Below, piece after piece: positions 16,539-21,669 of a stretch of DNA of 34,777 nt. Source of the DNA: Candidatus Heimdallarchaeota archaeon (GTDB lineage: Archaea > Asgardarchaeota > Heimdallarchaeia > Heimdallarchaeales > Heimdallarchaeaceae); the NCBI GenBank assembly GCA_021399345.1, contig JAAFKI010000091.1, positions 1 to 34,777 of the forward strand. Direction: 5' to 3'. Under the pieces are notes generated by a model. It searched no databases, had not been told where the DNA came from, and worked only from the letters and a program-made list of their open reading frames with translations. The translations under genes were made by a program, and so were the position numbers. Every line of letters starts with the position of its first letter. The first letter of the stretch is position 1.

Positions 16539-17441
16539 ATGAAAACTTCACAAACTAAAGGTAGTAAAAGAACATATGTACCTCATAAAGCTGCTGCTGA
16601 ATTCAAGCCAACATTTGATTGGACAGAAGCTGAAGCATTGAGTTTGTTTAATGATAGATTATTTACCTTTGAAGTTGATAAGATTCATTTTAAAGATTGT
16701 ATTAAAGGAATGAGGGATCTACCAACAGAAAGCGTTGACCTGATTATAGCAGATCCCCCCTTTGGTTTAAATTTCGGTAATATGGAACCGCTCTATAATA
16801 GAGACAGTAATTATGTTGCAGAAGGATACCAAGATATTCATATTGAGAACTATATGGATTTCACTGACAAATGGATAAGTGAACTACCTCGTCTTATGAA
16901 AGATGATGCGGGTGTTTGGATCTTTAGCGGCTGGACAAATCTTGTAGATATTTTAAATGCATTAAAAGATAATAATTTAACGCTGATTAACCATATTATC
17001 TGGAAATATCAATTTGGAGTTTTTACCAAAAGGAAATTTGTTACTAGCCATTATCATGTTCTATTTGCTGTTAAAAACGAAAAAAGTTATTTTTTCAATA
17101 AAGTTGAGCACTATCCTGAAGATGTTTGGAATTTCAAAAGAGAGTATGAAAGAGGAACAAGGAAGAACGCTACTAAACTCCCTCTAGAGGTTGTTTTAAG
17201 ATGTATAGATTTTGGAAGCAAACCTGGTGATTTGGTACTAGATCCGTTTATGGGGAATGGAACAACAGCTGTTGCTGCAAAAGGTTCTTTCAGACACTTC
17301 CTTGGTTTTGAAGTTAATCAAACTCTAAGTGATATAATTGAAAAAAGTATAAAGCAAACATCATTAGGGGAACTCTACATACCTTACAGTGAAAAACCCG
17401 ATGAATTGGTAAGAAAAGCTAGAAAGAAGTTTAGTAAATAA
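16539..17441 (+). CDS. Orphan DNA methyltransferase, N4-C/N6-A beta class
   Basis: Motif IV IADPPF lies before motif I LDPFMGNGTT. No restriction endonuclease is adjacent. Confidence 0.92.
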   Translation: MKTSQTKGSKRTYVPHKAAAEFKPTFDWTEAEALSLFNDRLFTFEVDKIHFKDCIKGMRDLPTESVDLIIADPPFGLNFGNMEPLYNRDSNYVAEGYQDIHIENYMDFTDKWISELPRLMKDDAGVWIFSGWTNLVDILNALKDNNLTLINHIIWKYQFGVFTKRKFVTSHYHVLFAVKNEKSYFFNKVEHYPEDVWNFKREYERGTRKNATKLPLEVVLRCIDFGSKPGDLVLDPFMGNGTTAVAAKGSFRHFLGFEVNQTLSDIIEKSIKQTSLGELYIPYSEKPDELVRKARKKFSK

Positions 17442-17642: not shown

Positions 17643-17792
17643 ATTTTCATCTTTATTTTAGTTGTCTTGCTATTCAAGAAATTCTTAGAAAGGTTATAAT
17701 ATGCTTTAAGTGATAGATCAACTGTTTTCAATCCTATCATTTTACTTTGTTAAAAGGTAAAGTTAAAATTCTATTCTTTTTTTCTATTCAAG

Positions 17793-18548
17793 GTGAAAAA
17801 AATCCCATTTACGGAAAAAGATGTCAATGACATTGTCCAAATAATCAATGAATCTAAATACGTAGTAGCTTTTACTGGTGCTGGAATAAGTACTGAATCT
17901 GGTTTAGCTGATTTCAGAGGTAAAGATGGTATCTGGACAAGAAAAGAAAAGGGACTACCACCTAAAAGAGGAAAACATTTTGATGAAGTTAAACCGAATG
18001 CTGGACATCTTGCTCTAGTTGCTTTGCAGGAAATGGGAGTGCTCAGATTCTTAATTTCTCAAAATGTAGATAATCTTCATATTAAATCTGGCATTAAACC
18101 TGAATTGATAGCCGAACTTCACGGGAACTATATGTTTATGAAATGTATAGAATGTGATACTCGATATAAGCGGGAAGAAGTTGGTTGGGATCGAGAAATT
18201 CATGGAAGAGGTTTTAGAGCAGAGAAACAACTTGATCATCAACCAGTATGTCCAAATTGCAATGGTAGAATAATTTCTTCTGTTATTAACTTTAATGATC
18301 CCATGCCTGAAAAAGAAATGGTAATATCAAAGAAACACACTCTGAAGTGTGATTTAATGTTGGTTGTAGGATCAAGTTTATCAGTTTTTCCAGCTGCTGG
18401 GTTGCCTAGAAAAGCACAAAAGAATGGAGTCAAGTTAATTATTATTAATATAGACCCAACACCTTTGGATGAAAAAGCTGATATCAAGCTTGAGGTTAGT
18501 GCTGGTGAAATTTTATCAGAAGTAGTAGCAAAACTAATAGAAAACTAG
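17793..18548 (+). CDS. Sirtuin (NAD-dependent protein deacylase), class IV / SIRT6-like
   Basis: GAGISTESGLADFRG, SQNVDNLH, ELHGN, CIEC...CPNC, VGSSLSVFPA and IIN motifs. Confidence 0.93.
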   Translation: MKKIPFTEKDVNDIVQIINESKYVVAFTGAGISTESGLADFRGKDGIWTRKEKGLPPKRGKHFDEVKPNAGHLALVALQEMGVLRFLISQNVDNLHIKSGIKPELIAELHGNYMFMKCIECDTRYKREEVGWDREIHGRGFRAEKQLDHQPVCPNCNGRIISSVINFNDPMPEKEMVISKKHTLKCDLMLVVGSSLSVFPAAGLPRKAQKNGVKLIIINIDPTPLDEKADIKLEVSAGEILSEVVAKLIEN

Positions 18549-18607: not shown

Positions 18608-20626
18608 ATGACAAATATTAGAGATACTATCAAGAAATTCTATTCCGAGTTAATAATGTTTGCAATTTTGTTCTTATTCTTCTTTCAAGCGCTTTCTGAT
18701 TTACTTGAAACAATTTATGGTTTTGCTCTCTTAAACCAAGAACCTGATGAAAACATTCTTGGATTGGTGTTTCTTGTTACTCCTGTTGTGCTTTTATTCT
18801 TCCGTAAAAGGCTTTCAGATATGATTTTAGTTATACTTGGAGAACTGATGATTTTATCAAGATTACTAGATCCCTTACTAAAAAGACAAGGAATATTAGT
18901 TACTTCAGGTTTAGCAGTTGGATGTTTCTTAGTTTTCTTTCCAATTTATTTAACAAGGATGAAAAATGAAGAGAAAAGAACGAGTACCACTCTCGGATTA
19001 TCGCTAGCAATTGCTGTTACACTATCCATTTTGCTTAGATCTTTAAATTCCTCTATTGACATCTCGATGTATAGCTGGTATCAAGTGATTGGCTGGATTT
19101 TCGGCATTATTGCAGGAATTATGCTATTTGGGATGAAATTCAAAAGTGAAGGACAGAAGGAAACTCAAGAAGAAATAAAAGAGTCTTCAAAAGGAAGCGG
19201 TTTTGGTAAAATCCTTGCACTGACTTCTGGACTTGTGAGCGTTTTCATCATTATTTGGTTTACTTTTGCAAGTCCTACGGTCATTTCTAGATGGACCGAG
19301 GGGAATTATATTGGAATAACTCTAGGCATTCTCGGAGTCTTATCTTTGTTTGTAATAGGACAAATGCTTAAACCAGATCTGTTAAGCAAATTGAGAACAT
19401 GGATGCTTTGGGTTTGGAATGGTGTATTCGCTATGTCTCTTTTCCTAACGGTTCTTGTTCATCAACTGAGCTTTCCTGATGAATCAGCTTTATATCCTAT
19501 AGTTGCTCCACAAACTGCTTGGTACCATCATATACCACTAGCTATAATGATTCTTCTATCACCAATAATCTATGTTGATTTTATGCTCCTAACAAGAGAA
19601 ATAATCAAGATAAAACCCTCCACTAGAAAAATGGGTGGTAGTTTCGCATTAGCTGGTAGTCTCTATATCATTGTAATGATCTTTGTTCAAATATTACCCA
19701 ATATTTGGGGTTACCTTGAACCGATAAGTACAGGATTTAGAGATAAGTATTGGCTAGCTTTCTTCTTACCCGGGCTAGTATTGACTTTATCCATATTACT
19801 AGTTAAGAAAAGTTCGTTTGATTTAGGTAAACTATATACAAATAAAAGAAGAAATATAAGCGTAATAGTACTGCTCAGTACAATTTTCCTAGGAACATTA
19901 GTAGGTACTCTTGTAACTAAACCTTATCCAAACTATACACCAGATGGAGAGCTGGTTATAATGACATTCAATATTCAACAAGGAAGAAATGTTTCAGGAG
20001 ATAGGAATTTTGATGGCCAAATTGCGCTAATAAAACAAGTTGATCCTGATATACTTGGATTAATAGAATGTGACCCTACAAGAATTTCTGGAGGAAATCT
20101 AGATGTCGTTAGGTATTTCGCAGAAAAACTAAATATGTATTCATATTATGGTCCAAATACTGTTACTAACACGTATGGCTGTGCAATTCTTTCTAAATTC
20201 CCCATATCAAATGCAATGTCATTCTTCATGTTCAGTGATGAAGAACAAATAGGTTCAGCTCAAGCTGAAGTAACTTTAGATTCAATCATTTACAATGTTT
20301 TTGTTAATCATCCCTCTGGCGATGCAACAAGTACAACAATTCTCCAACAAGAAGAAATGTTGACAAGAGTAAATGGATTAAGCAACGTTATTTTTATGGG
20401 TGATTTTAATTTCAGAAAAGATTCTGTACAATATAGCTTAACTACAGCAGTACTCAATGACAGCTGGTATCTTAAATGGCCTTCTGGATTGGATGATAAT
20501 TCATTCAATAGTTCAGATAGAATTGACCATATTTTTGTTAGCTCAGGAACAACTGTTTTAGATGCGAGATATATCTTAACAGAACAATCTGACCATCCTG
20601 CATATTGGATTAGAATCTCACTCTAA
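18608..20626 (+). CDS. Polytopic membrane protein with C-terminal EEP domain (CWH43/PGAP2IP-like)
   Basis: About 12 TMs followed by MTFNIQQG, DILGLIE, GCAILSKFPI, MGDFN, RIDHIF and SDHP. Confidence 0.88.
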   Translation: MTNIRDTIKKFYSELIMFAILFLFFFQALSDLLETIYGFALLNQEPDENILGLVFLVTPVVLLFFRKRLSDMILVILGELMILSRLLDPLLKRQGILVTSGLAVGCFLVFFPIYLTRMKNEEKRTSTTLGLSLAIAVTLSILLRSLNSSIDISMYSWYQVIGWIFGIIAGIMLFGMKFKSEGQKETQEEIKESSKGSGFGKILALTSGLVSVFIIIWFTFASPTVISRWTEGNYIGITLGILGVLSLFVIGQMLKPDLLSKLRTWMLWVWNGVFAMSLFLTVLVHQLSFPDESALYPIVAPQTAWYHHIPLAIMILLSPIIYVDFMLLTREIIKIKPSTRKMGGSFALAGSLYIIVMIFVQILPNIWGYLEPISTGFRDKYWLAFFLPGLVLTLSILLVKKSSFDLGKLYTNKRRNISVIVLLSTIFLGTLVGTLVTKPYPNYTPDGELVIMTFNIQQGRNVSGDRNFDGQIALIKQVDPDILGLIECDPTRISGGNLDVVRYFAEKLNMYSYYGPNTVTNTYGCAILSKFPISNAMSFFMFSDEEQIGSAQAEVTLDSIIYNVFVNHPSGDATSTTILQQEEMLTRVNGLSNVIFMGDFNFRKDSVQYSLTTAVLNDSWYLKWPSGLDDNSFNSSDRIDHIFVSSGTTVLDARYILTEQSDHPAYWIRISL

Positions 20627-20703
20627 TCATCTTCTTCCTTCTTTTTTCTTTTACTAGGAATATATAAATAATATAGTGAGCTGTTTACTTCTTGGGGTTC
20701 AAA

Positions 20704-21669
20704 ATGAAATCCAAGTCTAAAAGTAGAAGTTTTATTGTTATAATTTTAATAACTACTATTTTCTTATTATCATCATTTTCAAGCATTAATGGATATGATT
20801 TATCTGCACCTATTATAGCTGATCATTCAATTGCGAACATGGTTAGGTTAGATGAAATGCCTGATTCAGCAATTATTACCGCTAAAAACACTTTGCATAT
20901 AGCTTATCAACATACAAGTCATGGATCTCAGATAATAGATGGGATGAATGCATTACCAGCATTCAAAGAAAGTAATGGTGGAACAACAGATCTTTATGAT
21001 TATAATAGTTCATTTCTTCACGATGGAGCAATGTCTTCAGTTCCAGATGTGGGGTATCCTGGATGGGATAATGCAACTAGAGATTACTTAGATAATCCTG
21101 CTAATAGTGATTGTAATGTGATAATGTGGAGCTGGTGTGGACAAGCTAGTTCTCAAACAGAACAGACCATGATAGATCATTATTTAGATCCAATGAATCA
21201 ATTGGAAATAGAGTATCCTGATGTAATGTTTGTCTACATGACTGGTCATACTGATGGTACAGGATTAGATGGAAATTTACATCTAAGAAATGAGCAAATT
21301 AGAGATTTTTGTATCTCAAATAATAAGATTCTTTTTGATTTTGCTGATATTGAATCTTATGATCCTGATTGTAATTATTTTGGAGATAAAAATGTTAATG
21401 ACAATTGTGATTGGAATAATGGCACCCATTCCGGAAACTGGGCTTTAGATTGGCAAGCAACTCATACAGAAGGTGTTGATTGGTTTAGTTGTAATTGTGC
21501 TCATAGTCAGGCACTGAATGGAAATATGAAGGCTTATGCAATCTGGTGGTTATGGGCAAAATTAGCTGGTTGGGAGTTCACAGTTTCAGAAAGTTTTGTA
21601 GCTCTTCCAATAATTTTTCTCACAGTTTGTTCATTTTCCATAGTAATTGTCTCTAGAAGAAGGAGATAA
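20704..21669 (+). CDS. Secreted, C-terminally anchored protein (possible SGNH-like fold)
   Basis: Signal peptide from ATG at 20704. HTSHGSQI, WSWCGQ, RNEQIRDFC, LFDFADIES and CAHS segments. Ends VSESF-TM-RRRR. Confidence 0.8.
   Translation: MKSKSKSRSFIVIILITTIFLLSSFSSINGYDLSAPIIADHSIANMVRLDEMPDSAIITAKNTLHIAYQHTSHGSQIIDGMNALPAFKESNGGTTDLYDYNSSFLHDGAMSSVPDVGYPGWDNATRDYLDNPANSDCNVIMWSWCGQASSQTEQTMIDHYLDPMNQLEIEYPDVMFVYMTGHTDGTGLDGNLHLRNEQIRDFCISNNKILFDFADIESYDPDCNYFGDKNVNDNCDWNNGTHSGNWALDWQATHTEGVDWFSCNCAHSQALNGNMKAYAIWWLWAKLAGWEFTVSESFVALPIIFLTVCSFSIVIVSRRRR

Follow-up and report, generated by a model that had tools for sequence, protein, structure and literature searches.

A short-linker, class IV-like sirtuin encoded in a Heimdallarchaeial genome and its relationship to eukaryotic SIRT6 and SIRT7

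Introduction

In eukaryotes, SIRT6 and SIRT7 have central roles in chromatin and in genome stability, and their prokaryotic roots bear on the origin of eukaryotic chromatin regulation. In SIRT6, a short single-helix linker takes the place of the helix bundle and the flexible cofactor loop (PMC8389836). Class IV enzymes are poor peptide deacetylases in vitro (JBC 2023). A previous study reported that SIRT7 and a clade of Heimdall and Loki sirtuins are well-supported sisters (Grau-Bove et al. 2022, bioRxiv 10.1101/2021.11.30.470311). More recently, a 2026 preprint reported three SIR2 paralogues in Loki-B35 and showed NAD-dependent deacetylation of Loki histone-tail peptides by LoSIR2b (bioRxiv 10.64898/2026.07.02.735847). 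In the same preprint, SIR2 catalytic domains of Loki and Hod joined to the yeast Sir2 targeting domain rescued silencing in a yeast sir2 deletion, and a MAG of Kariarchaeaceae (Heimdallarchaeia) was found to be without nucleosomal histones. Thus, the link between the short-linker Asgard sirtuin and SIRT6/7 is already published, and what we recover of it here repeats known work.

In this study, we analysed a stretch of 34,777 nucleotides from a Candidatus Heimdallarchaeota archaeon (contig JAAFKI010000091.1 of assembly GCA_021399345.1), which we call the window. It encodes one more Heimdallarchaeial member of the clade that was described in 2022 and partly characterised in 2026. Two points are added here. 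First, bacteria carry the short form at least as commonly as Asgard archaea. Second, the enzyme is retained in the genus of the window though canonical histones are undetectable there.

The sirtuin gene and its short linker

The initial annotation had placed a class IV (SIRT6/SIRT7-like) sirtuin at positions 17793-18548 of the forward strand. We found an uninterrupted ORF of 251 codons at exactly this place, and the strings that had been quoted from it (GIWT, RKEKGLPPKRGKHFDEVKP and HLALVALQEMGVLRFLISQNVDNLHIKSG...IAELHGN) are all there. The reverse strand opposite the ORF contains many stops. The protein matches the SIR2 family of Pfam (PF02146) with an E value of 4.8e-31 and 108.5 bits, the cut-off being 24. 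In addition, database homologues of 250-252 aa align with 100% of the protein at up to 93% identity; because these homologues span its whole length, the GTG start is credible. The features of the locus are as follows:

17763..17769, forward strand: candidate TATA-box-like element TTAAAAT, its centre lying about 27 nt before the GTG; read from the sequence
17793..18548, forward strand: sirtuin gene (short-linker, class IV-like), ORF of 251 aa with GTG start
17877..17891, forward strand: NAD-binding motif GAGIS at residues 29-33, with F41-R42-G43 after it; aligns to GAGIS...FRG of SIRT6
17940..17996, forward strand: linker of 19 residues (50-68) that replaces the helical module and the cofactor-binding loop; ungapped against SIRT6 73-91
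18060..18122, forward strand: catalytic core, Q90-N91-V92-D93 and His110 (ELHGN); N, D and H kept in 165 of 165 relatives
18144..18260, forward strand: zinc module, C118-x2-C121, 31 residues, C153-x2-C156; the four Cys present in 163 of 165 relatives

At this spacing, TTAAAAT would be compatible with an archaeal transcript that has a short leader or none. A scan for sigma-70 promoters and terminators stayed at chance level, and it is irrelevant for an archaeon.

GIWT (residues 46-49) is followed by RKEKGLPPKRGKHFDEVKP, which runs from R50 to P68, and then by HLALVALQEMGVLRFLISQNVDNLHIKSG...IAELHGN. In the phmmer alignment, the corresponding segment of human SIRT6, MEERGLAPKFDTTFESARP, has the same length. 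Furthermore, residues 8-245 align to human SIRT6 31-266 in a single stretch (E = 5.5e-51, phmmer against PDB sequences), and there are zero gaps between GAGIS and ELHGN. The claim of a 19-residue segment that lacks the helical module and equals that of SIRT6 in length is therefore upheld by an ungapped alignment. Among 165 aligned relatives, the linker measures 17-24 residues in the SIRT6-like set vs 35-59 in the others. Judged from these alignments, the SIRT6-like short linker is far beyond chance.

Comparison of sequence and fold

The ten best PDB sequence matches are all human SIRT6 (E = 5.5e-51 to 1e-50), and each of them is one stretch over residues 8-245. The class U and class III proteins Sir2Af2, Sir2Tm and CobB match in two stretches each, broken at the linker. 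The E values are 1.9e-39 for Sir2Af2, 3.1e-27 for SIRT7 and 1e-18 to 1e-25 for SIRT3/4/5; in bits, SIRT6 reaches 176, human SIRT7 98.6 and SIRT3/4/5 69-92. Fish SIRT6 shares 36% identity with the window sirtuin (185 bits, 8 gap positions), and the remaining two sirtuins of the window's genome, which we label L001 and L002, share 31-32% (105-112 bits, 32-34 gap positions). By these sequence measures, the window sirtuin is nearer to vertebrate SIRT6 than to its own two paralogues.

From an alignment of 45 homologues, AlphaFold2 gave a model with a pLDDT of 92.3. In this model, the only helix of the linker region is a short one (47-52), which comes after the first Rossmann strand-helix and before helix 70-80; a short single-helix linker, with neither helix bundle nor flexible cofactor-binding loop, is a feature of class IV. 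In Foldseek searches against PDB, the 33 best matches are all SIRT6 (TM 0.81-0.83), and the class U structures of Sir2Tm and Sir2Af2 reach 0.70-0.74. With VIA-align, SIRT6 gave Z 28.8 and an rmsd of 2.2 Å over 236 residues, and Sir2Af2 gave Z 27.1 and 4.5 Å over 228 residues. The gap in Z is small because the fold is common to all sirtuins: many sirtuin structures show Z of 24-29 to the model, which has the Rossmann and zinc-module fold. Both rmsd and coverage favour SIRT6.

The comparison with human SIRT6 (PDB 3K35, 3PKI and 3ZG6) also reveals clear differences. Both proteins share the same core architecture, the 19-residue linker and a spacing of 19 between the catalytic N and H, with 35-36% identity over the whole core and an rmsd of 2.1-2.5 Å over 235-239 residues. 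However, the N-terminal lid (residues 1-23) and the C-terminal nuclear extension of SIRT6 are both missing. N- and C-terminal extensions for chromatin or nuclear targeting were not found in the 251-aa protein, a core that corresponds to about residues 24 to 270 of SIRT6; in eukaryotic relatives, such extensions range from tens to hundreds of residues. In addition, the insert between the two Cys pairs is 31 residues long in the window sirtuin vs 21 in SIRT6, and the SIRT6-specific second zinc knuckle, Cx10C with an extended loop, is absent from the window sirtuin, which has CxxC (C153-P-N-C156). Animal SIRT6-type relatives have 11-13 residues in this stretch. In SIRT6, the Cx10C loop carries the arginine that anchors the enzyme to the acidic patch of the nucleosome.

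Eukaryotic SIRT7-type proteins with QNCD (for example P0185, which is annotated as sirtuin-7 of Xylaria, and human SIRT7, PDB 9gmk) share the short linker and the CxxC...CxxC zinc site with the window sirtuin. The class U and class III sirtuins (Sir2Af2, Sir2Tm, CobB, L002 and L001) have the fold, the catalytic residues and a similar length in common with the window sirtuin, but unlike it they have a helical module of 35-59 residues and an N-to-H spacing of 17.

One characterised relative is LoSIR2b of Lokiarchaeum strain Loki-B35. We located it in a single-contig Loki genome (G137, locus L005) by its residue numbers, QNVD at 94-97 and ELHG at 112-115. The preprint prints its first motif as QNID, and the G137 protein has QNVD; another locus of this genome (L011) has N106 and H123, the residues that were mutated in LoSIR2a. 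LoSIR2b shows 50% identity to the window sirtuin over 244 residues with 2 gap positions, shares the short linker and the 31-residue zinc-module insert, and is the sole short-linker sirtuin among the three of its genome, as is the window sirtuin in its own.

Phylogenetic analysis

The phylogenetic data set comprised 114 sirtuin domains, namely 42 eukaryotic, 19 Asgard, 20 named bacterial and 14 short metagenomic sequences and 19 long-linker outgroups, which included the two paralogues of the window's genome. The 150 best representatives reach down to 149 bits. The eukaryotes included fish and amphioxus SIRT6, plant SRT1, a fungal protein annotated as sirtuin-7, and proteins of Balamuthia, Willaertia, Hemimastix and chytrids. 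The alignment had 244 columns, from which the linker columns drop out. Besides a quick tree, a careful one was computed with IQ-TREE (LG+C20+F+G4, PMSF). The tree holds no metazoan SIRT7, class I or class II sequences, and fungal and protist QNCD-type proteins stand for SIRT7.

In the careful tree, all short-linker sirtuins formed one clade apart from the class U-like and class III-like outgroups (100/99). Thus, the window sirtuin groups with class IV and outside class U and III in a maximum-likelihood tree from which classes I and II are absent. The class IV (SIRT6/7) architecture proposed in the initial annotation is borne out, with SIRT6 and not class U or III as the best counterpart in sequence, structure and tree. 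The description of the SIRT6/7 model of CDD (cd01410) already covers prokaryotic members.

An ordinary sirtuin of the CobB type (class III or U), with a superficial likeness to SIRT6, is an extremely improbable reading of the protein. Although its best NCBIfam models bear CobB-type names, and the VIA Z of Sir2Af2 and Sir2Tm is merely about 1.5 under that of SIRT6, the CobB equivalog models of NCBIfam all score far under their cut-offs (the best, 204 vs 320 bits) and match in two pieces. The helical module with the class III Y-x-x-R, which L001 has, is missing from the window sirtuin, and separate class III-like and class U-like genes exist in the same genome. Furthermore, the tree splits the short-linker sirtuins from the class U-like and class III-like ones. 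CobB identity was rejected on the sub-cut-off NCBIfam scores, the SIRT6 alignment and the tree.

Within the short-linker clade, the eukaryotes, both SIRT6-type and "sirtuin-7"-type, formed one subclade (100/99). The window sirtuin fell into an Asgard clade of 15 (98/81), that is, into a prokaryotic clade outside the eukaryotic SIRT6/SIRT7 crown group. Because the eukaryotes form their own clade without it, the window sirtuin is, on these sequences, best named class IV-like, or class IV sensu lato, and not an orthologue of SIRT6 or of SIRT7. An adjoining clade of 33 (98/92) contained all bacterial forms, LoSIR2b and proteins of Hermod, Thor and Prometh. LoSIR2b therefore belongs to a neighbouring subclade together with bacteria, not to the Asgard subclade of the window sirtuin, and its kinship in sequence may fall short of strict orthology. 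The joining of the clade of 15 with the clade of 33 is weak (81/24). From these trees, we place the window sirtuin in a prokaryotic group that is sister to the class IV proteins of eukaryotes.

An AU test did not reject the grouping of the eukaryotes with the Asgard clade of the window sirtuin (delta lnL 7.3, p = 0.418). The trees do not tell which members, those of Asgard archaea or those of bacteria, stand closer to the eukaryotes (AU p 0.42), and they cannot name the donor of the eukaryotic genes. Meanwhile, the fungal and protist SIRT7-type proteins fell inside the eukaryotic clade, not beside the Asgard sequences, in the careful tree.

A long-branched group of short-linker proteins (P0139, P0140, P0143 and P0146, the last from a Heimdall MAG) was also observed. 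It stood, with weak support, beside eukaryotic class IV in the careful tree (89/89, 80/66) and elsewhere in the quick tree. Among Asgard sirtuins, the P0146 group might stand nearer to SIRT6/7 than the clade of the window sirtuin does; the two trees disagree on it, and therefore its placement carries no conclusion.

Distribution in archaea and bacteria

The assembly of the window is 3.27 Mb in size and 88.6% complete, and it encodes three sirtuins: the window protein, L001 (class III-like, with Y-x-x-R) and L002 (class U-like). The closest database entries of the window sirtuin are proteins of Heimdallarchaeota MAGs (91-93% identity), and homologues from Thor-, Loki/Prometh-, Hod-, Borr-, Jord- and Freyarchaeia show 53-72% identity. 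At E <= 1e-40, a match was present in 189 of 400 Asgard species genomes, and in 21 of 24 of the same genus.

To estimate the distribution outside Asgard archaea, an alignment of non-Asgard short forms was used as the query against GTDB, with one genome per species, and at least 587 relatives were found. Among the 80 best of these loci, 62 were bacterial (Thermodesulfobacteriota 23, unplaced "Deltaproteobacteria" 12, Chloroflexota 12, Planctomycetota 6, Myxococcota 5, Pseudomonadota 2, Spirochaetota 1 and an unclassified bacterium 1) and 18 were Asgard. All 80 have a short GAG-to-QNxD spacing of 60-62 residues. In addition, the three nearest clusters in the ESM Atlas are bacterial. Therefore, as judged from these sequences, the short form is no signature of Asgard archaea plus eukaryotes, and the proposal that the protein is a eukaryotic-signature protein, confined to these two, does not hold. 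The opposite concern, that it belongs to a widespread bacterial clade not sister to class IV, was right in its first part, since the clade is widespread and includes many bacteria; the second part failed, as this clade is the nearest relative of class IV.

A true eukaryotic-signature protein could still be argued for if SIRT6/7 descended vertically from an Asgard sirtuin and the bacterial copies were later transfers. We consider this somewhat unlikely. The Asgard clade was reported as sister to SIRT7 by Grau-Bove et al. (2022), our AU test does not reject eukaryotes and the window's Asgard clade as one group, and the second small group, with P0146 of the Heimdall MAG, lies beside the eukaryotes (89/89). 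However, in the best tree the window's Asgard clade joins the bacterial forms and not the eukaryotes, the bacterial loci among the best 80 come from at least six phyla, the nearest ESM Atlas clusters are bacterial, and the deep branches are weakly supported (81/24, 80/66).

The bacterial short-linker sirtuins of Thermodesulfobacteriota, Chloroflexota, Planctomycetota and Myxococcota share the linker and the clade with the window sirtuin. The forms of Myxococcota and Planctomycetota also have the long zinc-module insert. Unlike the window sirtuin, most bacterial forms are about 230 aa long and have 12 residues between the Cys pairs.

Several side observations were made in these searches. Some 250-aa forms from bacterial MAGs (L021, L023, L024, L025, L041 [Archangium MAGs], L040, L075 and L089) score 345-373 bits against the Asgard profile, equal to Asgard proteins; such scores point to a recent exchange of the gene between the two domains, or to errors in binning. 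In one Loki-type family (f20), several genomes carry tandem duplicates of short-linker sirtuin genes (G174:C323:18487-20039, G193:C9:32860-34438 and G216:C18:76598-78172). Furthermore, short or near-short sirtuin domains occur in fusions (P0122, P0123, P0145, P0157, P0125, P0127 and P0131), with an uncharacterised N-terminal extension of 250-290 aa, with zf-UBP (zf-UBP + SIR2, probably eukaryotic) or with a urea transporter (in a Planctomycete).

Catalytic core, function and substrate

In 45 Asgard homologues, GAGIS, F41-R42-G43, Q90-N91-x-D93, His110 and Cys 118, 121, 153 and 156 are invariant. The N-to-H spacing of the window sirtuin is 19, as for N114 and H133 of SIRT6, and it is 17 in its own class III-like and class U-like paralogues. 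Inside the zinc module lies an insert with conserved W132, G138, G140 and R142. The spacing of 31 between the Cys pairs is typical of the form found in Asgard archaea, Myxococcota and Planctomycetota; in the bacterial form of 230 aa, 12 residues separate the pairs, and eukaryotes have 21-27.

Because the active site is intact and LoSIR2b, 50% identical, is active, deacylation chemistry can be inferred. With high confidence, sequence and analogy point to a stand-alone, catalytically intact NAD+-dependent lysine deacylase of the short-linker family of SIRT6/SIRT7, and by analogy it is most likely a deacetylase. In this enzyme, NAD+ would be bound by the Rossmann domain through GAGIS, FRG, QNVD and GSS, and the cleft that separates the Rossmann from the zinc module would admit the acyl-lysine. 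His110 would serve as the general base, and nicotinamide, O-acyl-ADP-ribose and free lysine would be the products. One short helix would stand in place of the flexible cofactor loop and helix bundle, as in SIRT6.

Removal of long-chain fatty acyl groups, as by SIRT6 in vitro, seems unlikely to be the main activity. Pocket residues of 3ZG6 are kept in the window sirtuin (V115 as V92, L132 as L109, L186 as I165 and I219 as V198). Of the acyl-channel residues of SIRT6 (PMC8389836), most are kept or conservatively replaced, namely I61 (L38), F64 (F41), W71 (W48), F86 (F63), I185 (V164) and W188 (F167), but P62, F82, M136 and M157 are changed to A39, R59, Y113 and R134. In addition, the N-terminal segment of SIRT6, which becomes ordered over the myristoyl chain (PMC8389836), has no counterpart in the window sirtuin, whose first residue corresponds to about residue 24 of SIRT6. 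Class I and class U sirtuins, too, remove long acyl chains (4twj; PMC4253809), 4twj being Sir2Af2 with a myristoyl peptide. The pocket is thus not diagnostic of a defatty-acylase. Furthermore, LoSIR2b acts as a deacetylase, the activity that we prefer for the window sirtuin.

The other question is the substrate. LoSIR2b, with its 50% identity and shared architecture, and the preprint data on Loki and Hod enzymes would suggest a histone-tail deacetylase acting on chromatin. The substrates tested for LoSIR2b were Loki histone tails, and such histones were not found in the genus of the window. PF00808 and PF00125 gave zero matches in the window's 88.6%-complete genome; among the family genomes, 3 of 31 had a match above the cut-off, with both closed genomes among those that had none. 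With an Asgard histone as the query, one of the 25 species genomes in the genus gave a match, which lay on contigs of 2-3 kb. In sum, PF00808, PF00125 and the Asgard histone query detected no canonical histone gene in the window's genome, nor in 24 of 25 species genomes of the genus, though such searches could miss divergent or alpha3-truncated histones. The Kariarchaeaceae MAG of the 2026 preprint, without nucleosomal histones, is in line with this. Because a canonical histone gene is undetected in this genome and in 24 of 25 genomes of the genus, the published histone-tail substrate may not apply here. We therefore regard a histone-tail deacetylase like LoSIR2b as distinctly unlikely, and the chromatin idea for the window sirtuin appears weakened by the genome sequences.

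In this genus, the substrate of the proposed deacylase is probably not a canonical histone tail, and Alba or metabolic enzymes are candidates. There are two Alba genes in the window's genome (L094:1480-1767, forward strand, and L095), and one of them has the IGKK motif (K14/K15). This motif corresponds to the Sir2-regulated K16 of Sulfolobus Alba. That the sirtuin is retained without detectable histones argues against the family as a simple histone eraser. One tentative scenario, which we think doubtful, is that the Asgard short-linker sirtuin was the direct vertical ancestor of SIRT6/7, that the bacterial copies are secondary transfers, and that its ancestral job was non-histone deacylation. 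If this were true, a genus that keeps the sirtuin without canonical histones would mean that Alba or metabolic enzymes came first and histones were recruited later.

Gene neighbourhood

The neighbours of the sirtuin gene differ in every Asgard lineage examined (for instance, ArsR, DUF429, Big_7, an RM methylase, an aldo-keto reductase and a ZIP transporter), and they offered no clue to an operon or a substrate.

Three other ORFs of the window, all on the forward strand, were recorded. Directly upstream of the sirtuin, 16539-17441 encodes a stand-alone N6/N4 DNA methyltransferase (PF01555, 9.8e-35), which is flanked by a CN hydrolase and the sirtuin, with no restriction enzyme. Downstream, 20692-21669 is an ORF of 325 aa that is hydrophobic in a segment near its N-terminus and in its C-terminal tail, and that has no Pfam match. 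Between the sirtuin and this ORF, 18608-20626 encodes 672 aa; many membrane helices are predicted in its first part, an endonuclease/exonuclease/phosphatase domain comes after them, and this domain also matches the C-terminal nuclease-like domain of PGAP2IP (CWH43-like) at 6e-20.
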